The notes beneath the pieces were generated by a model, which did no database searches, had not been told where the DNA came from, and was given only the letters and a program-made list of their open reading frames with translations. Below are positions 3,159-35,974 of a DNA stretch of 41,468 bases, one piece after another (within the stretch, counting starts at the first letter, position 1; each line of letters begins with the position of its first letter). Made by a program: the position numbers and the translations under genes. Location of the stretch: the IMG/VR virus record IMGVR_UViG_2541047699_000015. One strand, given 5' to 3'. Source of the DNA: a virus. Its lineage: Duplodnaviria > Heunggongvirae > Uroviricota > Caudoviricetes.

Positions 3159-5621
3159 TCAATTCCCTGTTAATTGCAAAACTTGCTCTTCCAGCTTTTT
3201 AACCCTGCGTCTCATCATCGCAGATTCCAGAATCAGAGCCTCTTCATAACGGATACCGTAACATTCACCAGCCTCGACGGCTTCGCGTACCAGAACCTTT
3301 GTCTGTATAAGTGGGTAAACTCCTGCAGAATGCTCTTCTTCCGTCACATCCCTGTATTCTGCCGGGGTCTCATTCCACTTGTCATAACAGATAAATGCCA
3401 GTCGTGACACATCTATGCCTTCATTCTGAAATACACTGATAACATGCTGCGCAACTGCACCAAAGTGCCATCTTGCTCCGTCTTTACCTTTCACTTCGAT
3501 CCTGTCAAGGTACTGGTATGAAACCCATTCCACTCTTTCCCATGCGTCCAGTATTTTCTCATCAATAACCTCTGGAGCAGTCTTGAAACGCGCATCGGAC
3601 AGCACCGTAAACGCTGACTGGGTAAATCCCCCCGACCATGCACGACCAGCCAACCCAAGAGAATAAGTATTCGTTGTCGATGGTGTCATGGCTGAATCAG
3701 AAAACTGTATATATTCTGAATTTCCAGTAGATATTCGAATATTTCCATTTATTAGCGACATAGTGCCTTTAGTATTATCACTATTGAATAATTTCAATTG
3801 CGAACTTATACCGCCTCCCACAGCCAGAGATACATCGCCTTCAGCAAGCATTCTGAATTTATCTGCAGAAACAAGCGTCTGGTTAGCAAGGTTAAAATAT
3901 TTAACCCACCATTCAAAACGCCCTGACATAGTCCCAACGTACTGACCAAGCGCAGGGACGTGAACAACATTGCTATTTGTAGTGCCGTCTATACTGGAAA
4001 TACCAGTCACCGCTGATGCAGAACTCAGAATATTATTTCTGTCACCCGGATGTTTAATTTCAACAAAGTTCCTGATACACCCTTCCTCGAAGGTAACCAC
4101 GCCGGAAGAACTATACATGGGGAATATTGACGCATAATTACTGCGTGCAGCATCTAAGAAACGAATGGTTGTAGATGTCTGCAGATCTCCTGATTCATTT
4201 TTCCCATCACACCCAGTCATTAGAATATTACTGGCAATATTATTATTTCCCTGAACGGTGACTCCGTGCGCCTGCTTTGCGTCCGATTCAGAGTAATCAA
4301 CCAGCACATTCGAAATCAGGTTACCAGTCCCCTTGCCAACAACTACTGCGGCGTATTTTGGGTTGTTAGCCATTACACTGCTAATGATATTATTCGTTGG
4401 GGCAGTTTCCGTCTCAGTTCCATTGTAAACAACGTGCTGACACTCTTCACCAATAACATTGCTGACAATGTTATATTTTGCTGCTGTTTTAAGTTCCACT
4501 GCACCAAACTGAGGATAATTTCTGGCTATCACACCATCAATTAGCGTATTTTGCGATGAATCAAAAAGCACACAACCTGCTTTTTTATTATTTGCGAACC
4601 CTAAATACTCTCCTCTTATATCTCTAACAATGTAACCTGACGGAATACCATTATTCGGATAAGCGATCAAGCTAAATCCTGTTCCTCGCGTATTTGTAAA
4701 TCTGATATTTTTAACCGATACATCATGGCCACCTGAAAATGACACCTGGTGTCCCTGCACACTATCATCTGATTTATTTCCCATAATTGTTAGCGTACTA
4801 AGCATGCCACCATCGGGCATGTTAAAAACCAGATGATTACCATCTCTGTCATACTGTTTTATCGTTCCCCCACCTGTTCCGTACAAGCCACAACGTGAAA
4901 GAGAAACTAAAGATGTATTGAATACCCCTTCCGGAACAAAAACACTGCTAAACGAATGTAATGATTTTGTAAAAGCATCCTTGTTATCATTTAAGATTCC
5001 ATTTTGAGCTCCAAAATCCTTAATGCTGACACCATCACGCATCTTATCCTGGAACGTTCTGTATACCGCTCCAGAACCATACTGAATAAACCAACCAAAA
5101 CCACCAATAACTCCGGCGATTGCAGCATCGACATAATTACGCATTGAGCGATTATTTACAGCGTCCTGCTCAAGTGATGGATCGGCAAGGTTAGATATTC
5201 TGTTTTGCTTTGCATCGTAATATTTTGCAAGCAAAGATGGTTTCATCAATGCACGTCTGAACCACCCAAAACATCGCTGGATCAGCATCGTCAGGTAGTC
5301 AAATGCATCCTCATGAACTTCGGGGAAAAATTTTCCCTGATTGCGAAGATCAGTCTCCTGCACCACATCAAGCACACGCTCTATCGTGATTCGCCAGCCA
5401 GCAGCAAGCGGCGACGGAAGAACCACTGCACCGCCACTATAAGTTCCCGCCCCTGTTACCGTATAACCAGCATCCAGCACTAGTTTTGTAACGTTACCGT
5501 TAAGGTCAGACACCTGAACAACCAGGTCGGATTTTTTGAAAATACGGAAGGTATACGGAAATGATGTCGTAACGCCGTTACCTGTGTATTCGTTGTGGTC
5601 AACTTCGGTTGAGACCGTCAT
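3159..5621 (-). CDS. Tailspike: T7 gp17-like N-terminal anchor, beta-helix (pectate-lyase-like) depolymerase body, C-terminal S74-type autocleaving chaperone
   Basis: N-terminus GNGVTTSFPYTFRIFKKSDLVVQV resembles T7 tail fibre N-terminal domain; Gly/Asn/Ser/Thr-rich repetitive body; C-terminal SDARFK ... WHFG motif of intramolecular chaperone; SD GGAG 8 nt before ATG 5621. Confidence 0.75.
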   Translation of the reverse strand: MTVSTEVDHNEYTGNGVTTSFPYTFRIFKKSDLVVQVSDLNGNVTKLVLDAGYTVTGAGTYSGGAVVLPSPLAAGWRITIERVLDVVQETDLRNQGKFFPEVHEDAFDYLTMLIQRCFGWFRRALMKPSLLAKYYDAKQNRISNLADPSLEQDAVNNRSMRNYVDAAIAGVIGGFGWFIQYGSGAVYRTFQDKMRDGVSIKDFGAQNGILNDNKDAFTKSLHSFSSVFVPEGVFNTSLVSLSRCGLYGTGGGTIKQYDRDGNHLVFNMPDGGMLSTLTIMGNKSDDSVQGHQVSFSGGHDVSVKNIRFTNTRGTGFSLIAYPNNGIPSGYIVRDIRGEYLGFANNKKAGCVLFDSSQNTLIDGVIARNYPQFGAVELKTAAKYNIVSNVIGEECQHVVYNGTETETAPTNNIISSVMANNPKYAAVVVGKGTGNLISNVLVDYSESDAKQAHGVTVQGNNNIASNILMTGCDGKNESGDLQTSTTIRFLDAARSNYASIFPMYSSSGVVTFEEGCIRNFVEIKHPGDRNNILSSASAVTGISSIDGTTNSNVVHVPALGQYVGTMSGRFEWWVKYFNLANQTLVSADKFRMLAEGDVSLAVGGGISSQLKLFNSDNTKGTMSLINGNIRISTGNSEYIQFSDSAMTPSTTNTYSLGLAGRAWSGGFTQSAFTVLSDARFKTAPEVIDEKILDAWERVEWVSYQYLDRIEVKGKDGARWHFGAVAQHVISVFQNEGIDVSRLAFICYDKWNETPAEYRDVTEEEHSAGVYPLIQTKVLVREAVEAGECYGIRYEEALILESAMMRRRVKKLEEQVLQLTGN

Positions 5622-5724
5622 GTTAAATCTCCAGATAGTCGCAGCACCCGTTGCGCCGCATATCTGGTTATTCTATTACCCAAAAAACCATATATGGATA
5701 GAAAGACTGTGAATATGAATAGAT

Positions 5725-5741
5725 ATTACCTTTCAGGTAAT
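5725..5741. promoter_or_regulatory. 17-bp operator ATTACCTTTCAGGTAAT
   Basis: Perfect ATTACC-N5-GGTAAT palindrome in the divergent region between tailspike and plus-strand island. Confidence 0.6.
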
Positions 5742-5777
5742 TTGCAAAACGTGCTGGATAGCAAACAAATTATTTGC

Positions 5778-5797
5778 TACTGTATAAATATACAGTT
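5778..5797. promoter_or_regulatory. LexA (SOS) box TACTGTATAAATATACAGTT
   Basis: CTGT-N8-ACAG with AT-rich spacer, 18/20 match to consensus TACTGTATATATATACAGTA as remembered; 20 nt upstream of SD/start of gene 5818. Confidence 0.75.
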
Positions 5798-5817
5798 ATT
5801 GCATGGAGAAGATTAAG

Positions 5818-6075
5818 ATGCAGCAGTATCACTATCCACTGGAAGAGGGATTTACCGAAAGGATTCACACGCCGGGAGGCGTCAGGTCACTGGTGGAGGG
5901 ATCGCACTTGATGAAATTACTCCGGGATCTCGATAAGGATGGATTTAATGTCGATGGCCCACTTGCCGAACTGACTGCACTGATTAACTACGTCACCAGC
6001 TCACAGATGTCTATGCAGGATCTGCAAACACATCTCGACTATTGTGCCGAACAATTACGAAAACAAACCAGATAA
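5818..6075 (+). CDS. Small LexA-box-preceded protein, paralog of C-terminal domain of ORF6N protein; candidate antirepressor
   Basis: SD GGAGAA 6 nt before ATG 5818 (track start 5803 lacks SD); product aligns with C-terminus of 6889-7608 product (IH-P-GV...LM-LL...DG-V-G-AELT...QTH-Y). Confidence 0.6.
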   Translation: MQQYHYPLEEGFTERIHTPGGVRSLVEGSHLMKLLRDLDKDGFNVDGPLAELTALINYVTSSQMSMQDLQTHLDYCAEQLRKQTR

Positions 6076-6078
6076 GGT

Positions 6079-6122
6079 TTGCAATTACCAAATGGAGTGC
6101 TTATATTTACCTTTGCGGTAAA
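6079..6122 (+). promoter_or_regulatory. Sigma70-like promoter (TTGCAA-N17-TATATT) with overlapping operator TTTACCTTTGCGGTAAA
   Basis: -35 at 6079-6084, -10 at 6102-6107, operator 6106-6122 begins 22 nt after the -35 hexamer, same spacing as at 7653 and 35931. Confidence 0.55.
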
Positions 6123-6155
6123 TTTACATCGCACTCCTCTTGTGCCATAGTAATC

Positions 6156-6194
6156 GGGCACTGGCAAAATCCAGTGCCGGGATTGGCGTCCCGG
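6156..6194 (+). ncRNA. Structured leader: two mutually exclusive hairpins
   Basis: Hairpin A GGCACTGG/CCAGTGCC (6157-6178) and hairpin B CCGGGA/TCCCGG (6177-6194) share the CCGG segment, so only one can form. Confidence 0.35.
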
Positions 6195-6212
6195 ATTACT
6201 AGTAGGCGCATA

Positions 6213-6234
6213 CCACGCCAGACGTGGTTTTTTT
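6213..6234 (+). terminator. Rho-independent terminator/attenuator in leader
   Basis: Hairpin CCACG-CCAGA-CGTGG followed by T7 run. Confidence 0.6.
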
Positions 6235-6389
6235 ATGCGTATAGCACAGTCATATCCGAATTATGGTGGGCTGGGCAGGGGCACCGAAAGGTGCGCCGGT
6301 ACCTACTAGGCCGGTACGCCAACCTTGTCCAGTTCACCACCAGCAATTGGCGTTGCGGTGGTGGGTAACTTACTAGTAGAGGTATCGCT

Positions 6390-6896
6390 ATGCCAGGCCA
6401 AAAAATCTCAAACGACGATCTGTATTGGTTAATTTCTAATTCTCCACTCCTTCTTATGCTAAGGCAAGAAAGTGCACCACTGGTCAGTGAATTGATTAGC
6501 TGTAGAAATAGAATGTGGGATGAAGGGGCAGATTTAGATACCAATTTGTTTGATCATCTTATGCAACTAGCAGTCGATAACAAGGCAAAACTACGCTCTG
6601 AATACAACGCTTATCCAGAAATAGCAAAATACCTTAACGCTGAAATACTTGGTGGACCAGGTCAACCAGACCTAAAAACAAAAGATGGTTACCCTGTTGA
6701 GGTGAAGGTAGATACTTTTTCTCCTTCAGCATTAAAACAATTATTAAGGTATATGGATGCTTCTGGCGCAGATTTTGGTTTTGCTTGTGCAAAAACTCTT
6801 TCTGTAAAACTCCCTGAAAACATAAAGTTCATCCAGTTAGATTATAAAGATAATTGCTATTTCGTCGTGAAAGATGGAGGCAATGAAAATGCGTAA
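6390..6896 (+). CDS. Hypothetical protein (accessory island)
   Basis: SD AGAGG 7 nt before ATG 6390; 168 aa; no family recognised; stop overlaps next start (ATGCGTAA). Confidence 0.6.
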   Translation: MPGQKISNDDLYWLISNSPLLLMLRQESAPLVSELISCRNRMWDEGADLDTNLFDHLMQLAVDNKAKLRSEYNAYPEIAKYLNAEILGGPGQPDLKTKDGYPVEVKVDTFSPSALKQLLRYMDASGADFGFACAKTLSVKLPENIKFIQLDYKDNCYFVVKDGGNENA

Positions 6897-7608
6897 TATA
6901 GCTATTGATAAGTTGCCGATAACAACTCATTGCAACATCCCTGTAATGACTACAGAAATGCTTGCTGATTTGTATGACACAGAACCCAAACTGATTCGTC
7001 AAAACTATCAACGAAATGCAGATCGATTCATTGAGGGAAAACATTGTTTCAAGCTGATAGGCGAAGAATTACGAGCATTTAAGAACGAGTCCTCTCAAAG
7101 AGGTTTGCTTAATATTGCACCAAAAGTAAGTCATCTTTTCTTATGGACCGCTCGCGGTGCAGCACGACATGCGAAAATTCTTGAGACTGAAAAAGCGTGG
7201 GAGGTCTTCGAAAAACTGGAAGATTGCTACTTCGACAGAAAACCCGCAAATGTCAGCGGAGATGTTCGTCTCTCAGGTGGAGCTGATTTATCAAAGGCCA
7301 CTCAGGTAATTGAAAAATTCATGCCCGCCATTATGGAGGCGATCAAGCTGGAAGACAAAAAAGAATACAGTGCCCCACTGAAGCCCGGCTACCGCAGTCT
7401 GATTCATTCTCCGTCTGGTGTTCTCGGCCTGACGGAGAACTCATTGCTGATGAATCTGCTGAATCAGTTGCAGGACGACGGGCATGATGTATCGGGCGCG
7501 GCGGCGGAGCTGACCACCATGTTCTGCTACATCGTCGGTGTGAGCAAATGCCTGCGTGATATCCAGACCCACGCGGAGTACATCAACGACAAAGCAGGAT
7601 TCTTCTGA
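6889..7608 (+). CDS. ORF6N-domain protein (phage antirepressor-like) with C-terminal domain shared with 5818-6075
   Basis: N-terminal segment VMTTEMLADLYDTEPKLIRQNYQRNADRF...LWTARGAARHAKIL resembles ORF6N domain of antirepressor-type proteins; start at ATG 6889 with SD GGAGG 8 nt upstream. Confidence 0.6.
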   Translation: MRNIAIDKLPITTHCNIPVMTTEMLADLYDTEPKLIRQNYQRNADRFIEGKHCFKLIGEELRAFKNESSQRGLLNIAPKVSHLFLWTARGAARHAKILETEKAWEVFEKLEDCYFDRKPANVSGDVRLSGGADLSKATQVIEKFMPAIMEAIKLEDKKEYSAPLKPGYRSLIHSPSGVLGLTENSLLMNLLNQLQDDGHDVSGAAAELTTMFCYIVGVSKCLRDIQTHAEYINDKAGFF

Positions 7609-7652
7609 CGGGCGGCGGCACAGGGATGTGCCTTTAAATAATTCTGTACAGA

Positions 7653-7696
7653 TTGCAGACCGGGGGTGAATAGCGTACTATTACCTTAAAGGTAAA
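7653..7696 (+). promoter_or_regulatory. Promoter (TTGCAG-N17-TACTAT) with overlapping operator ATTACCTTAAAGGTAAA
   Basis: -35 at 7653-7658; operator 7680-7696 starts 22 nt after -35; precedes gene 7738. Confidence 0.5.
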
Positions 7697-7737
7697 CCTG
7701 TTTTTATTTTATACCTGTAACTTACCGGAGATTAAAG

Positions 7738-8064
7738 ATGACAAAACTTGGATTCGTGATGAGAGGTCCGGTAAGAAGCGGAACTCATGCAAAGCGTAGC
7801 AAGAGTCGTATTTTTACTGGTAAGGTTGTAGCACGTAAATCAGCTATTGGCTCGTTCAATAGTGAAAATGCGGCATTGCGCCATATTTTTATCAGCACAA
7901 AGCCAAGAGCATCCGCTGATGTGCATACAATGTCTATTCCTATCACAAAGAATATCAAGCGGATAAAAAAGCTCTCATCTGCAGAATCAAAAGAGATATC
8001 TTTCCGCCAGCTTAACTCATTAGAAACGCATATGAAGGAAGAGGAATTCGATGTTTTTGAGTGA
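7738..8064 (+). CDS. Basic small protein, possible antitoxin-like partner of downstream gene
   Basis: SD GGAG 7 nt before ATG; 108 aa, basic N-terminus, acidic C-terminus; C-terminal RQLNSLETH faintly resembles YefM/Phd NSLEE motif; 14-nt overlap with next gene. Confidence 0.5.
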   Translation: MTKLGFVMRGPVRSGTHAKRSKSRIFTGKVVARKSAIGSFNSENAALRHIFISTKPRASADVHTMSIPITKNIKRIKKLSSAESKEISFRQLNSLETHMKEEEFDVFE

Positions 8065-8563
8065 GTATAGCGGGAAGGTTATACCTACTGGTGAGTTTAA
8101 AACTGATGACTTTCTGATTTCGCTAAAAGATGCTTTTAAACAACACTGGCGTCATGGTCATCATCCTGATCTGGGAAAAGATACTCTTTTTGAAAGACCA
8201 GACGAAGTATTAGGCTTCCATCTCAGAAAGGTTCATGTCAATATTGGTGAATATGCATCATATTCATACTCATGTACTGAACAGTGTTGGGATGAGTGGT
8301 CATATGGATTGATTGATGAACAAGGAAATTACAGGCCAAAACCAACCAGTAACGCATATCTCATATATGCAGTCAATGAAATAAGAGATGCAGCCTTACT
8401 AGCTTATTGGGACCCGCCCGCACACACCAAAGCTAACGCAAAAGTTTGGATGGATTCCGTATTGAATTTCACAAAATTATTTCATGAACGAACGAATACA
8501 GCTCCACTTAGTAGAAATGTTTATCCGTGGGATTATTCGTACAAATCCAAAAAGCCTGCATAG
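8051..8563 (+). CDS. Candidate YafO-like toxin family protein (tentative)
   Basis: Segments DAFKQHWRHGHHPDLGKDTLFERPDE and FHLRKVHVNIGE resemble remembered E. coli YafO (DFISYKRDGVLPDTFGRDALYDD, ERVAHIHLANE); from memory only. Confidence 0.4.
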   Translation: MFLSEYSGKVIPTGEFKTDDFLISLKDAFKQHWRHGHHPDLGKDTLFERPDEVLGFHLRKVHVNIGEYASYSYSCTEQCWDEWSYGLIDEQGNYRPKPTSNAYLIYAVNEIRDAALLAYWDPPAHTKANAKVWMDSVLNFTKLFHERTNTAPLSRNVYPWDYSYKSKKPA

Positions 8564-8644
8564 TAGTTTTTTATGGACGAAACAAAAGTCAGTGCTACAC
8601 TCATTGACGCCACATTGAGGTGGCTTATAGATGGAAATTTCACA

Positions 8645-8806
8645 ATGAAAAAAGCATTTGCTGCACTGTTCGTTTTGTTGTCTCTGGTAGCTTCAACTCA
8701 GGCCTTTGCCGGTCGTTGTCAGCACGACAGCGACACTGCTGCTGACGGCTCCCGCTGCGGTGGGCGTTCTGCGGATTCCCGCCCGGGTGGCGGTGGCATT
8801 CGTTAA
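8645..8806 (+). CDS. Small secreted Cys-containing peptide
   Basis: Signal peptide MKKAFAALFVLLSLVASTQAFA then 31-aa Gly/Ser/Asp-rich mature part with two Cys; start at ATG 8645 rather than track start 8573. Confidence 0.45.
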   Translation: MKKAFAALFVLLSLVASTQAFAGRCQHDSDTAADGSRCGGRSADSRPGGGGIR

Positions 8807-8829: not shown

Positions 8830-8841
8830 GTGACATGTCAC
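8830..8841. repeat. Palindrome GTGACATGTCAC, copy 1
   Basis: Perfect 12-bp palindrome; contains stop codon of lipoprotein gene; immediately upstream of terminator in direction of transcription. Confidence 0.8.
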
Positions 8842-9218
8842 GCAACGCAATTATTACCGCGCCATGTAACATTTTTAATAATCTTATCAGCACCAAACTC
8901 AACGTAAACAGAGCAACTGAAATGGAGTGTATAACCGCCATCAGTTGTTGCGTATGTGTTTGAATATATAGTATTACCAATTAGATTAGACGTAGTATTA
9001 TACGTTGTGGTTTGTGGTACGTTATAACTACCAGAGCTTGAGTAAACATACACTCTGTTTCCATCTGGAGATGTAAGCTCTCCCTGAGGATACCCCCACT
9101 GCTGAACCATTGCGTCTATACTCTGCCCGCGCCACGTAAGCATATTTCTTTCAAACTGTGCAGCTGACTGGCATCCAACGAGAAGCATAAATCCAAAAAT
9201 CAAAAATACTTTTCTCAT
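8838..9218 (-). CDS. Lipoprotein at end of virion operon (possible superinfection-exclusion or virion lipoprotein)
   Basis: Start at ATG 9218 with SD AGGGG; signal peptide with lipobox LLVGC; Ser/Thr/Tyr/Asn-rich mature protein. Confidence 0.6.
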   Translation of the reverse strand: MRKVFLIFGFMLLVGCQSAAQFERNMLTWRGQSIDAMVQQWGYPQGELTSPDGNRVYVYSSSGSYNVPQTTTYNTTSNLIGNTIYSNTYATTDGGYTLHFSCSVYVEFGADKIIKNVTWRGNNCVA

Positions 9219-9303
9219 AATTACCCCTATCATGGAAAAACAGCACCAATCCACAAATTAACTAGTTATTTTATTATTCTTCCGAACAATACAATTCCGA
9301 ATA

Positions 9304-21494: not shown

Positions 21495-21514
21495 GTGGGT
21501 CTGTTACGACCCAC
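21495..21514 (-). other. RNA hairpin between capsid and downstream gene
   Basis: GTGGGTC-loop-GACCCAC, no U tract; possible RNase III/processing site. Confidence 0.35.
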
Positions 21515-25850: not shown

Positions 25851-25927
25851 GTGGCATTAGCTCAGTTGGACAGAGCAACCGCCTTCTAAGCGGTTGGTCG
25901 CAGGTTCGAATCCTGCATGCCACGCCA
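25851..25927 (+). tRNA. tRNA-Arg (anticodon UCU), phage-encoded argU-like
   Basis: Cloverleaf read by eye: acceptor stem GTGGCAT/ATGCCAC, D-arm GCTC...GAGC, anticodon stem ACCGC/GCGGT with loop CTTCTAA (anticodon TCT at 25885-25887), T-arm GCAGG-TTCGAAT-CCTGC, discriminator G, encoded CCA. Confidence 0.9.
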
Positions 25928-34869: not shown

Positions 34870-35100
34870 TCATGAGTAGAAGAAGTATGCCAGTTCCGCT
34901 TTTGAGCGCAGCCATTGTCTTGTTTTACAGGCTTTAAAAAGCCCATTCATCAATACCTTACCTGGCATTTTGCGCTTACCTGTTAAGTGAGTCTGGATAT
35001 AGTGACTCGTCGTTCCGGCTTCCTGTGCGAAGGCTTCACGCTCATCCGGAGTAAGTGCAAGCCAGTGCTTTTTGAAATCGAAATGTCCGTTATCGCTCAT
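34870..35100 (-). CDS. Cro-like HTH regulator
   Basis: 76 aa, first gene of the operon that contains the replication genes, divergent from CI-like gene; HTH-like segment AFAQEAGTTSHYIQTHLTG. Confidence 0.6.
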   Translation of the reverse strand: MSDNGHFDFKKHWLALTPDEREAFAQEAGTTSHYIQTHLTGKRKMPGKVLMNGLFKACKTRQWLRSKAELAYFFYS

Positions 35101-35135: not shown

Positions 35136-35200
35136 TTCACCCATAAGGTAACAAAAATCAAGGATAGTTACCTATGGGGTGCATTTACCTGTTGGGTAAT
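35136..35200. promoter_or_regulatory. OR-like region: three operators between cro-like and CI-like genes
   Basis: TTCACCCATAAGGTAAC (35136-35152), GTTACCTATGGGGTGCA (35167-35183), TTTACCTGTTGGGTAAT (35184-35200); candidate -10 TAATAT at 35197-35202. Confidence 0.6.
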
Positions 35201-35254: not shown

Positions 35255-35839
35255 ATGAAAAGTATCCAGGACGTCCGCAGGCAAAATCTCAACGACTTGA
35301 TCGACCGTGAATTCAATGGTGTTCAGACGCGGATGGCAGAAAAACTTGGAACTCAGGCAAATCTGGTAAACCGCTGGGCTCTTGGCAAGAAGGTTATCGG
35401 CGACCAGGTTGCGCGAAAAATTGAAGCTGCCGCCAATAAACCCCGTAACTGGCTTGATATCGATCGCTCGCTTTCTCAGGAAGGTTTTCAGCCTGTCGGC
35501 CCAAGCGACATTGGTCAGCTGGCAGCTCACAACCTGGAACGCTGGATGAGTGAAAGCCGCGACCTTTCAACTCAGGGAAAACTTCACCGCGCATCCGGCG
35601 TCGCCCAGGTGACAATAAGCCGCCTGTTAAACAATGAGGTCAGCGTTTCCATTTCCACCCTGGAGAATGTTGCATCTGCATTCGGGCGTCACGGATATGA
35701 ACTACTGATTCATCCGCATGACCCTGCGACCATCAACTATGATCGCTCGCGCTACGCATTGTTACCCGAAACCGAGAAAGCAAAGATCGAAAGTTACATT
35801 GAATTTGTCATCAACCAGAACGAAAAAAACAAACAATAA
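35255..35839 (+). CDS. CI-like prophage repressor with two tandem HTH (XRE-type) domains, no peptidase domain
   Basis: HTH1 about residues 20-60 (QTRMAEKLGTQANLVNRW), HTH2 about 110-150 (LHRASGVAQVTISRLLNN); 194 aa; no LexA-like Ser/Lys autocleavage module. Confidence 0.65.
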   Translation: MKSIQDVRRQNLNDLIDREFNGVQTRMAEKLGTQANLVNRWALGKKVIGDQVARKIEAAANKPRNWLDIDRSLSQEGFQPVGPSDIGQLAAHNLERWMSESRDLSTQGKLHRASGVAQVTISRLLNNEVSVSISTLENVASAFGRHGYELLIHPHDPATINYDRSRYALLPETEKAKIESYIEFVINQNEKNKQ

Positions 35840-35895: not shown

Positions 35896-35974
35896 ATTAC
35901 CTAACGGGTAATTTTTTTAACTCATATCTATTGACATCAAACCATATACGCATAATTATTACCTCAACGGTAAC
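35896..35974 (+). promoter_or_regulatory. OL-like region: operator, -35 TTGACA, operator
   Basis: ATTACCTAACGGGTAAT (35896-35912); TTGACA 35931-35936; ATTACCTCAACGGTAAC (35958-35974) starting 22 nt after -35. Confidence 0.6.

Follow-up and report, generated by a model that had tools for sequence, protein, structure and literature searches.

The window, by which we mean the whole 41,468-nucleotide stretch of DNA analyzed, comes from a temperate, ε15/phiV10-like podophage of E. coli (genus Uetakevirus). The small gene ant, the LexA box in front of it, and the repressor gene rep most likely make up an SOS-induction switch orthologous to the Rep-Ant-LexA system of SPC32H, the closest system we found (Kim and Ryu, 2013, J Virol 87:11775; Kim et al., 2016, PNAS 113:E2480; PDB 5D50, 5D4Z), a reading of the sequence to which we give a probability of about 0.88. 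Read in this way, the switch from LexA through Ant to Rep is already known, being the E. coli-phage copy of the published one. The earlier note on this DNA had proposed SOS induction through a LexA-controlled antirepressor, with a repressor that does not cleave itself, and this proposal holds up: Ant and Rep are orthologs of the SPC32H proteins, whose complex has been solved (5D50), and the LexA box is homologous. What the analysis itself establishes is the sequences and their homologies, together with the conservation and the statistics of the sites; LexA binding, Ant-Rep binding, and the resulting induction in the present phage we infer from the SPC32H work. The two phages belong to the same genus, their Ant proteins are 89% identical and of about the same length, ant and the tailspike gene diverge in both, their LexA boxes coincide in the alignment, Rep is homologous over its full length and has no cleavage domain, and the same operator palindrome is found at syntenic sites. 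They differ in that the host here is E. coli, that Rep is 42% identical, and that ant is followed by an insert of ~3 kb, while in SPC32H it is followed by a terminator and structural genes.

The small antirepressor gene

The ant gene (5818-6075, + strand) begins with an ATG at 5818, ends with a stop codon at 6073-6075, and is preceded by the Shine-Dalgarno (SD) sequence GGAG at 5806-5809; PGAP calls the identical open reading frame (ORF) in E. coli MLI109. Its 85-aa product is the ortholog of the 86-aa SPC32H Ant and matches chain E of PDB 5D50, the 'Anti-repressor protein', with E=1.6e-47 (residues 2-84 against 3-85). As with SPC32H-type Ant, the gene has the tailspike gene on one side and the structural operon on the other, and the divergent arrangement with the tailspike gene recurs in ε15 and phiV10. 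PGAP labels the product 'hypothetical protein', PHROGs place it in phrog_450 ('unknown function'), and it is hypothetical in nearly all phage records except those of SPC32H/N and two Salmonella phages. Within the window, Ant aligns with residues 158-231 of the protein encoded at 6889-7608 (42% identity over 74 aa, E=6e-16), as had been noticed earlier in the form of a match to the C-terminal domain of an ORF6N protein.

A tblastn search of 50,697 phage records with Ant (E<=1e-3) matched 35 records, every one of them ε15/phiV10-like, with E. coli, Salmonella, Enterobacter, and Klebsiella as hosts; no relative beyond these phages was found in that search. This bears on the parallel that the earlier note drew with Gifsy prophages and coliphage 186 Tum, which stands where functional analogs are meant but fails for homologs. 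Passages of PMC7380047 and PMC3121763 describe 186 Tum, GfoA/GfhA of Gifsy-1/-3, and AntC of N15 as small antirepressors behind a LexA box that accompany a non-cleavable repressor. What is shared with them is the logic, namely SOS induction by protein-protein inactivation of the repressor; unlike them, Ant is of another sequence family, as judged indirectly from the tblastn of phage records. P22 immI (mnt-arc-ant) is a further antirepressor cassette that a temperate podophage carries next to its tailspike gene, with its ant under Mnt, Arc, and the sar RNA and not under LexA.

The LexA box and the divergent control region

The LexA (SOS) box TACTGTATAAATATACAGTT (5778-5797, unstranded) is identical to the E. 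coli LexA consensus TACTGTATATATATACAGTA at 18/20 positions, with perfect CTGT and ACAG half-sites and a spacer made up entirely of A/T, as the earlier description of a near-consensus box with an AT-rich spacer had it. It is the sole site in the window with <=3 mismatches to the consensus, none of 100 shuffled sequences yielded any such site, and the second-best 20-mer of the window reaches 14/20. Other CTGT-N8-ACAG sites in the window, at 21501 (9/20) and 26043 (12/20), have G/C-rich spacers. In an alignment of five phages whose hosts belong to three genera (the window, phiV10, SPC32H, ε15, and Tyrion), the boxes fall in one and the same column; CTGT and ACAG are invariant throughout, and the spacer varies. 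Between SPC32H and SPC32N, the ant region shows a change from ACAG to AAAG within the LexA box, in the same column as the box of the window. This mutation in SPC32N is reported to make Ant constitutive. From the end of the box to the SD of ant there are 8 nt and from its center ~19 nt, so that a distance of 20 nt, as previously given, is roughly right when measured from the center.

The promoter that this box would control is placed by conservation, since a consensus promoter scan called no sigma-70 promoter at the box. The candidate ant promoter (5755-5783, + strand) consists of a -35 element TGGATA (5755-5760), a 17-nt spacer, and a -10 element TACTGT (5778-5783), supplied by the left half of the LexA box; TATAAA (5783-5788) and TATACA (5789-5794), both within the box, are alternative -10 hexamers. 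The sequence TGCTGGATAG from this candidate promoter region is invariant in the window, phiV10, SPC32H, and SPC32N, and nearly invariant once ε15, Tyrion, and the Klebsiella phage are included. On the opposite strand, a candidate tailspike promoter (5670-5698, - strand) is inferred from a -35 element TCCATA (5698->5693) and a -10 element TAGAAT (5675->5670). It falls under the threshold of the consensus scan in the window, and aligns, in a conserved block, with the scan-found SPC32H site TTCATA-17-TAGAAT.

The tailspike and ant genes share a divergent control region of 196 bp (5622-5817), and the location of the LexA box within it, together with the missing promoter call at the box, would fit a box that serves the tailspike gene, or one that is a chance AT-rich palindrome, with ant expressed independently of SOS. 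We consider this very improbable. A chance origin is hard to square with the consensus match and the shuffles or with half-sites that are conserved across genera around a free spacer, and ~100 bp separate the box from the candidate tailspike promoter, to which it is upstream, against 8 nt from the SD of ant. The SPC32N box mutation, moreover, is said to have an Ant phenotype.

Rep and its operators

The rep gene (35255-35839, + strand) encodes a homolog of SPC32H Rep with two HTH-type domains. Pfam assigns HTH_3 to residues 106-147 (E=1.2e-9), and residues 21-61 give a weaker N-terminal HTH-like match under the Pfam cutoff. Peptidase_S24 is absent from Rep, the Pfam scan (E<=0.01) having returned HTH families alone, and it is absent as well from ten further mid-sized window proteins that were scanned; the repressor is thus as it had been described before, with two HTH domains and no S24 module. 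Because Rep cannot self-cleave, SOS induction would go through the antirepressor. Direct inactivation of Rep by RecA-stimulated cleavage, as in lambda, with Ant dispensable, is hardly credible for a protein that lacks this peptidase domain and can be aligned with SPC32H Rep over its whole length, and nothing was found that speaks in its favor. The latter reportedly stays uncleaved during SOS.

Rep matches PDB 5D50_A ('Repressor') over residues 1-190 (E=4e-42) and 5D4Z_A (Rep 92-198) over residues 89-190 (E=4e-20). The 42% identity to SPC32H Rep extends over the full length, and the C-terminal ~30 residues, the Ant-binding tetramerization domain, are ~55% identical by a hand count on the alignment, above the average of the protein. 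In SPC32H, according to the passages of PMC9638917 and PMC9986798 that deal with it, Rep is a tetramer, and an Ant tetramer binds two Rep dimers via the C-terminal tetramerization domain. As Rep is 42% identical to its SPC32H counterpart, the binding of Ant to Rep in the present phage is an extrapolation.

The stronger conservation of Ant than of Rep between these two phages (89% versus 42%) would be expected of a factor that recognizes many Reps, which raises the possibility that the main role of small Ant is in trans, against other prophages or during superinfection (anti-immunity), in the manner of P22 Ant or Gifsy cross-talk. Trans-acting antirepressors are documented in Gifsy/Fels prophages (in passages of PMC3121763 and PMC7380047), and the long paralog of Ant in phiV10 is annotated as 'anti-immunity protein'. 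We regard a mainly trans-acting role as rather unlikely; it is also compatible with self-induction. The LexA box ties expression to damage of the host cell, which makes more sense for a prophage already resident than for a phage that is just infecting. SPC32H Ant is also said to act on its own Rep.

The presumed targets of Rep, TTACC-N5-GGTAA palindromes, form a 13-copy family in the window. With <=1 mismatch allowed, the core is observed 14 times against 0.67 expected, a number reached in 0/100 shuffles, while matches with an N6 spacer (TTACC-N6-GGTAA) stay at chance level. One member, ATTACCTTTCAGGTAAT (5725-5741, unstranded), is located in the stretch from which the tailspike and ant genes diverge, upstream of the candidate ant -35 element and between the two divergent candidate promoters. 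It is 36 nt upstream of the LexA box, in agreement with an operator reported at about 40 nt. Its half-sites are kept and its spacer varies across six phages, and in the ε15 GenBank record the homologous site is annotated as protein_bind 'repressor', with an IHF site adjacent. The constitutive Ant ascribed to SPC32N suggests that Rep alone does not silence ant, and the palindrome upstream of ant could, in line with the dual control hinted at in the earlier note, be an extra control layer beyond the simple model.

Further members of the family are found elsewhere in the window, all unstranded. The palindrome TTTACCTTTGCGGTAAA (6106-6122) begins 31 nt past the ant stop codon, and its half-sites are kept around a variable spacer in the window, phiV10, Tyrion, and the Klebsiella phage; a third palindrome of this region, ATTACCTTAAAGGTAAA (7680-7696), is upstream of ORFs 7738-8064 and 8051-8563. 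An operator cluster (35136-35200) with 15-mer cores at 35137, 35168 (2 mismatches), and 35185 separates rep from a divergent cro-like gene (34870-35100; product matching phrog_35), and has syntenic counterparts in SPC32H and ε15. Downstream of rep and upstream of the leftward early genes, an operator pair (35896-35974) has its 15-mer cores at 35897 and 35959, 62 bp apart. Equal 62-bp pairs occur in SPC32H (33604/33666; 35972/36034) and in ε15, where the operators downstream of rep are annotated as repressor sites.

A second antirepressor module

Downstream of ant, the segment 6079-7608 is, on the evidence of its layout and RNA families, a second antirepressor module of the P1 immI/Gifsy-1 isrK type. 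It opens with two promoter-like sites (6079-6151, + strand), TTGCAA-17-TATATT (6079-6107) and TTTACA-17-TGcCATAGT (6123-6151, predicted start near 6158), which the scan picks up in the window and again at the equivalent places of Tyrion and the Klebsiella phage; TTGTGCCATAGT of this promoter/operator stretch is invariant. The palindrome at 6106-6122 is wedged between the two sites, and would appear a clearer case of Rep control than the one at 5725-5741. An isrK-type RNA follows (6158-6234, + strand; Rfam RF01394, 68.1 bits, gathering 50), with an intrinsic terminator (6212-6228 and a T run) and the upstream C4 targets X1, TTGGCG (6183-6188), and Y1, CTAGTAGG (6199-6206). At the same place, RF03163 (c4-a1b1) scores 45.1 bits, just under its cutoff of 46.7. 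A C4 antisense RNA is next (6259-6344, + strand; Rfam RF01695, 76.7 bits, gathering 45), with the loop CCTACTAG (6302-6309) and a single-stranded CGCCAA (6317-6322), and then a second set of C4 targets (6347-6384, + strand) made up of X2, TTGGCG (6347-6352), and Y2, CTAGTAGAGGTA (6373-6384), where Y2 spans the SD (GAGG, 6379-6382) of an ORF beginning at 6390. Homologs of the C4 RNA are found in phiV10, Tyrion, and the Klebsiella phage, and neither isrK nor C4 was found within the 5.5-kb ant loci scanned in SPC32H and ε15.

In a cross matrix of C4/target duplexes from four phages, the cognate pairs on the diagonal score best; by this comparison of predicted duplexes, C4 and its targets covary among the four phages and pairing is phage-specific. 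This segment-level contrast of cognate and non-cognate pairs supersedes a whole-molecule RNAduplex calculation, which ignores intramolecular structure and in which the observed energy was reached by 15/300 shuffles for C4 with isrK and 1/300 for C4 with the downstream region.

The ORF at 6390-6896 (+ strand), also called by PGAP, encodes 168 aa (phrog_18738, E=6e-119, 'unknown function') and has no Pfam or PADLOC match. Its stop overlaps the start of the following gene by 8 nt (ATGCGTAA). That gene (6889-7608, + strand) encodes the long antirepressor, with an N-terminal ORF6N domain (Pfam ORF6N, E=1e-18) and the C-terminal Ant-like domain; PHROGs assign phrog_1760 'anti-repressor' (E=1.5e-97) to the ORF6N half and phrog_450 to residues 161-242. 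In relatives, Bro-N replaces ORF6N and the C-terminus is unchanged. The ~3-kb insert after ant also carries a putative YafO-type toxin pair and more small ORFs; PADLOC found no defense-system match among the inserted ORFs, weak ORF6N-type ones aside.

The module resembles P1/P7 immI (c4-icd-ant) in having a C4 RNA upstream of the antirepressor, two C4 target copies (the first upstream, the second covering the RBS that serves the first ORF), an upstream ORF overlapping the antirepressor start, and a repressor operator at the promoter. Unlike in P1 immI, the repressor is Rep and not C1, and the antirepressor C-terminus is the lineage-specific Ant domain; the likeness to the P1 c4-icd-ant operon is one of layout and RNA. 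With Gifsy-1 isrK-orf45-anrP (Hershko-Shalev et al., 2016, PMC4825925) it has in common an isrK RNA with its own terminator and read-through from it into an upstream ORF, the translation of which is coupled to that of an antirepressor-like gene. The stable processed RNA downstream of isrK is STnc1160 in Gifsy-1, and the corresponding position here is taken by a C4 family member. Unlike in Gifsy-1, the module stands directly behind a LexA-controlled antirepressor gene and has Rep operators, no antQ is nearby, and the upstream ORF is 168 aa long versus 45 aa.

Such an elaborate, conserved control module, and the C-terminal domain common to both proteins, could mean that the long ORF6N-Ant under isrK/C4 is the real inducer, with small Ant an accessory or modulator, e.g. 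through mixed oligomers. Overexpression of the ZX5 homolog lowers lysogeny, with lysogens down from 1e9 to 1e6 (PMC9782041), and in Gifsy-1 the isrK-controlled AnrP sets off prophage induction (PMC4825925). We nevertheless hold this to be improbable. Salmonella members (ε15, SPC32H, and others) have a single Ant-like region by tblastn, the scanned SPC32H and ε15 ant loci are without isrK and C4, small Ant alone is present in the solved Rep complex (5D50), and the long gene of phiV10 is split by a frameshift. SPC32H itself reportedly switches through small Ant. The LexA-controlled small Ant is our preferred trigger, and yet, with a second antirepressor of the same C-terminal domain present, it may be neither the sole nor an essential inducer.

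Model for induction

In the lysogen, host LexA would sit on 5778-5797, overlapping the ant promoter or start site, and keep ant silent. Upon DNA damage, RecA would become active, LexA would cleave itself, and ant would be transcribed. Ant would then bind Rep, the two-domain repressor incapable of self-cleavage, and, as in SPC32H, tetrameric Ant on the C-terminal tetramerization domain would split the DNA-binding Rep tetramer into weakly binding dimers. Rep would come off its TTACC-N5-GGTAA operators (13, before early, packaging/structural, and accessory transcription units), leading to lytic growth. A passage of PMC7380047 (citing Kim and Ryu, 2013; Shearwin, 1998; Lemire, 2011) describes LexA-cleavage-dependent antirepressors as inhibiting the lytic repressor by protein-protein interaction. 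Among E. coli Uetakevirus prophages, ZX5 is mitomycin C-inducible (PMC9782041), and 21- and 47-fold induction by a DNA-damaging microcin has been described (bioRxiv 10.64898/2026.05.26.727859).

With lower confidence, the model may be extended to the second module. Once Rep is gone, the operator-flanked promoters at 6079-6151 would fire and yield isrK, the C4 RNA, the 168-aa ORF, and the longer antirepressor that shares the Rep-targeting C-terminal domain; C4 would gate translation of this isrK-C4-orf168-long Ant operon, and the decision would thereby be reinforced. A + strand terminator from the ant stop to the isrK terminator was found in none of three divergent phages, so the SOS-induced ant mRNA should have IsrK/a1b1 at its 3' end. 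A stem GGAGTGC/GCACTCC (6096-6137) was rejected as an ant terminator, having no T run and not being conserved in Tyrion or the Klebsiella phage. It is possible, as a tentative reading, that both antirepressor genes work together as a single coupled switch with two stages, so far undescribed. Here, LexA-gated small Ant would be the trigger, IsrK/a1b1 on the ant mRNA would act as C4 decoy or activator, and removal of Rep would open the promoters of the isrK-C4-orf168-long Ant operon. If this is true, the threshold of induction and its irreversibility would depend on LexA, Rep, and an antisense RNA of phage-specific pairing together.

Implications

The 5622-7700 region is present, at least in part, in 533 of 5,426 complete E. 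coli genomes, so that a large number of E. coli prophages can probably be induced by SOS through the unlabelled ant gene. The experimental paper on ZX5 studied the long antirepressor only and missed small ant (PMC9782041). The practical value of the finding is the annotation of small ant, now labelled hypothetical or of unknown function. Its scientific interest is a LexA-controlled antirepressor directly upstream of a Rep- and C4-controlled paralog, and ant with its isrK/C4 neighborhood offers a natural system for combined protein/RNA control of one induction decision.

Identity of the predicted Ant/Rep pair

The phage is assigned by sequence to the ε15/phiV10-like temperate podophages, genus Uetakevirus, and its region 5500-8000 matches phiv142-3, vB_EcoP_ZX5, phiV10, TL-2011b, ε15, and SPC32H. 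A prophage of E. coli MLI109 is 99.6% identical over the 2.1-kb stretch 5622-7700; at least part of this stretch is present in 533 of 5,426 complete E. coli genomes, and at least 80% of it in 21. The small antirepressor gene ant (5818-6075, plus strand), for which PGAP predicts the same ORF as read here, lies divergently upstream of the tailspike gene (3159-5621, minus strand), an arrangement found in every relative examined. The 85-aa small Ant shares 89% identity with the product annotated as ant in SPC32H, the Salmonella phage with a characterised LexA/Ant/Rep switch; among solved structures it matches chain E of 5D50 ("Anti-repressor protein", E=1.6e-47) alone. The repressor Rep (35255-35839, plus strand) aligns over its full length with chain A of 5D50 (E=4e-42), and it also matches 5D4Z, a fragment spanning Rep 92-198; its identity to SPC32H Rep is 42%. 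Every feature testable from sequence places the small protein in the SPC32H Ant family, and the locus is the orthologue of this genetically and structurally characterised switch. An earlier note had likened the small product to the C-terminus of the 6889-7608 protein, which the alignment bears out (residues 158-231, 42% identity, E=6e-16), and the ORF6N domain it ascribed to that longer protein is found at the N-terminus. It had also described Rep as carrying two HTH domains and lacking an S24 peptidase. One HTH is clear (HTH_3 at 106-147) and the N-terminal HTH-like match is weaker, while the domain scan found no S24 peptidase in Rep, nor in ten other mid-sized window proteins. The ant gene is mis-annotated almost everywhere: its family is of "unknown function" in PHROGs v4 (phrog_450) and a "hypothetical protein" in PGAP and most phage records. 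A study of ZX5 lysis-lysogeny genes overlooked small ant.

Predicted LexA control of ant

Eighteen of the 20 positions of the LexA box (5778-5797) agree with the E. coli consensus; both half-sites, CTGT and ACAG, are perfect, and the spacer is entirely A/T. As the earlier note proposed, this near-consensus site precedes the small gene (Shine-Dalgarno GGAG at 5806-5809, start ATG at 5818); it is the sole site in the window within three mismatches of the consensus, the next best 20-mer matching at 14/20, and none of 100 shuffles gave any. When the control regions of six phages of E. coli, Salmonella, Enterobacter, and Klebsiella are aligned, the box occupies identical columns in all six, with half-sites invariant in five (ATGT in the Klebsiella phage) and a variable 8-nt spacer. 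The homology, the site conservation, and the statistics of the switch are direct observations. A consensus promoter scan called no promoter at the LexA box; because TGCTGGATAG is invariant, we suggest a candidate ant promoter with -35 TGGATA (5755-5760) and -10 TACTGT (5778-5783), in which case the box would cover the -10 element and the start site. The deposited genomes of SPC32H and its LexA-box variant SPC32N differ by ACAG→AAAG in the box. Two nucleotide differences are seen between them in alignment A1 (columns 8-9 and approximately 196), both inside the aligned stretch: this C→A and a G→A among the opening codons of the tailspike gene. In a 2013 abstract by Kim and Ryu, the single ACAG→AAAG change is said to abolish LexA control, making Ant constitutive and forcing lytic growth.

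In the most likely mechanism, LexA on the box would block ant; DNA damage would lead to LexA cleavage and ant expression, Ant would bind Rep and release it from its operators, and the lytic programme would begin. The Ant/Rep homology and the conserved LexA box, as in SPC32H, argue for the SOS induction through a LexA-controlled antirepressor envisaged at first, and LexA binding, Ant-Rep binding, and the phenotype would be expected in the window phage by analogy with SPC32H. According to papers citing the SPC32H work, the antirepressor is made after LexA self-cleavage and inhibits the repressor through protein-protein contact (PMC7380047), Rep binds DNA as a tetramer, and an Ant tetramer contacts two Rep dimers via the C-terminal tetramerisation domain, breaking the Rep tetramer (PMC9638917; PMC9986798). 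Mitomycin C brings ZX5 lysogens to 1e9 PFU/mL (PMC9782041), and a DNA-damaging microcin induces phiV10-species prophages 21- and 47-fold (bioRxiv 10.64898/2026.05.26.727859). The parallel once drawn with Gifsy prophages and 186 Tum stands for the mode of action but not for relationship, since Tum, GfoA/GfhA, and AntC work in the same way as Ant yet are not its detectable relatives. The LexA-controlled ant switch itself is already known.

Rep operators and accessory genes

The Rep palindrome TTACC-N5-GGTAA starts at 13 positions (5726, 6107, 7681, 25514, 28663, 28681, 32792, 32854, 34800, 35137, 35185, 35897, and 35959), with a weaker copy at 35168; at one mismatch or fewer there are 14 sites against 0.67 expected. 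A palindrome at 5494, inside the tailspike gene, is probably a chance match. The palindrome recurs at syntenic positions in SPC32H and ε15, 62-bp-spaced pairs among them, and the ε15 GenBank record annotates seven as repressor-binding sites, one of them upstream of gp19, the ant homologue, adjoining an IHF site. The operator proposed earlier at 5725-5741 is therefore correct and already annotated at the syntenic site in ε15, being a real member of this over-represented family. About 14 bp separate it from the candidate ant -35 downstream, and a candidate tailspike promoter lies on its other side. It may give ant the dual control hinted at in the earlier note; the phenotype reported for SPC32N suggests that Rep alone does not silence ant. 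The thirteen palindromes precede most transcription units, several as 62-bp-spaced pairs, an arrangement that fits a tetrameric, looping Rep. Operator half-sites are identical in the window and SPC32H despite 42% identity of Rep against 89% of Ant, which invites the question whether phages of the genus can cross-induce one another or confer cross-immunity.

A tRNA-Arg (anticodon TCT, 25851-25927) lies near the 25514 palindrome, upstream of the portal operon; a tRNA-Arg is likewise present in the corresponding region of SPC32H. After the palindrome at 7680-7696 come two overlapping ORFs, likely a moron cassette: 8051-8563 is a YafO-family type II toxin according to PGAP (weak Pfam YafO match, E=9.5e-4), so 7738-8064 may be its antitoxin. 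The antirepressor region is followed, before the structural genes, by ORFs 8573-8806 and 8838-9254 (minus strand), which comprise a membrane-associated protein family (phrog_14503) and one of unknown function with a lipoprotein-like signal sequence (phrog_3716). The left end holds two probable lysogenic-conversion or accessory genes, at 1-516 and 532-1071, which encode a glycine-zipper/TraT-like lipoprotein and a DUF5384 protein.

The isrK/C4 antirepressor module

Directly downstream of ant, Rfam identifies an isrK Hfq-binding RNA (6158-6234; RF01394, 68.1 bits) and a C4 antisense RNA (6259-6344; RF01695, 76.7 bits), with a near-threshold c4-a1b1 target match overlapping isrK. Both RNAs occur in phiV10, Tyrion, and the Klebsiella phage, and neither was found in the scanned ant loci of SPC32H and ε15. 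A second Rep palindrome (6106-6122) sits between the -10 of a promoter-like site at 6079-6107 and the -35 of another at 6123-6151, the latter with a TG extension and a start predicted at about 6158, where isrK has its 5′ end. Three divergent phages conserve this promoter/palindrome/promoter arrangement. Two sets of targets are complementary to the C4 loop CCUACUAG (6302-6309) and to CGCCAA (6317-6322): one lies within isrK (6183-6188, 6199-6206), the other over the Shine-Dalgarno of the ORF at 6390 (6347-6352, 6373-6384). Across the window phage, phiV10, Tyrion, and the Klebsiella phage, loop and target covary (alignment A3: CCUACUAG/CUAGUAGG, CCUUUUAG/CUAAAAGG, CCUUUGUAG/CUACAAAGG, CCGUUUAG/CUAAACGG). 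In a cross matrix, the cognate pairings (-22.6 to -24.7 kcal/mol) are more stable than any off-diagonal one (-9.6 to -20.9), which suggests a phage-specific RNA "immunity", as between P1 and P7.

The 168-aa ORF (6390-6896, plus strand; phrog_18738, unknown function), without a Pfam or PADLOC match, ends 8 nt over the start of the long antirepressor (6889-7608, plus strand), an overlap that suggests translational coupling. In phiV10, Tyrion, and the Klebsiella phage, C4 is followed directly by the long antirepressor, the 168-aa ORF being inserted between them in the window. The Ant-like C-terminal domain of the long protein was found solely in the phage group to which Rep is also confined, and the N-terminal domain is swapped, ORF6N in the window and Bro-N in phiV10, Tyrion, the Klebsiella phage, and ZX5. 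A frameshift splits the phiV10 long antirepressor (L003, 3287-3966) into two annotated ORFs.

This layout of isrK, C4, 168-aa ORF, and long antirepressor is that of the P1 immI operon and the Gifsy-1 isrK-orf45-anrP locus, and the second module belongs among C4/isrK-controlled antirepressor operons. In Gifsy-1, the short form of IsrK switches on translation of the read-through transcript, and AnrP sets off induction of the prophage (PMC4825925). Among the papers searched, none ties Uetakeviruses to isrK or C4 or treats the two antirepressors as one unit. No plus-strand terminator was found between ant and isrK in the three phages scanned, so SOS-induced ant mRNA may carry a copy of the C4 target at its 3′ end, and removal of Rep should also open the second-module promoters. 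In essence, the tandem arrangement raises the tentative, on balance rather unlikely, possibility that ant and the isrK/C4/long-antirepressor module form a coupled two-stage switch.
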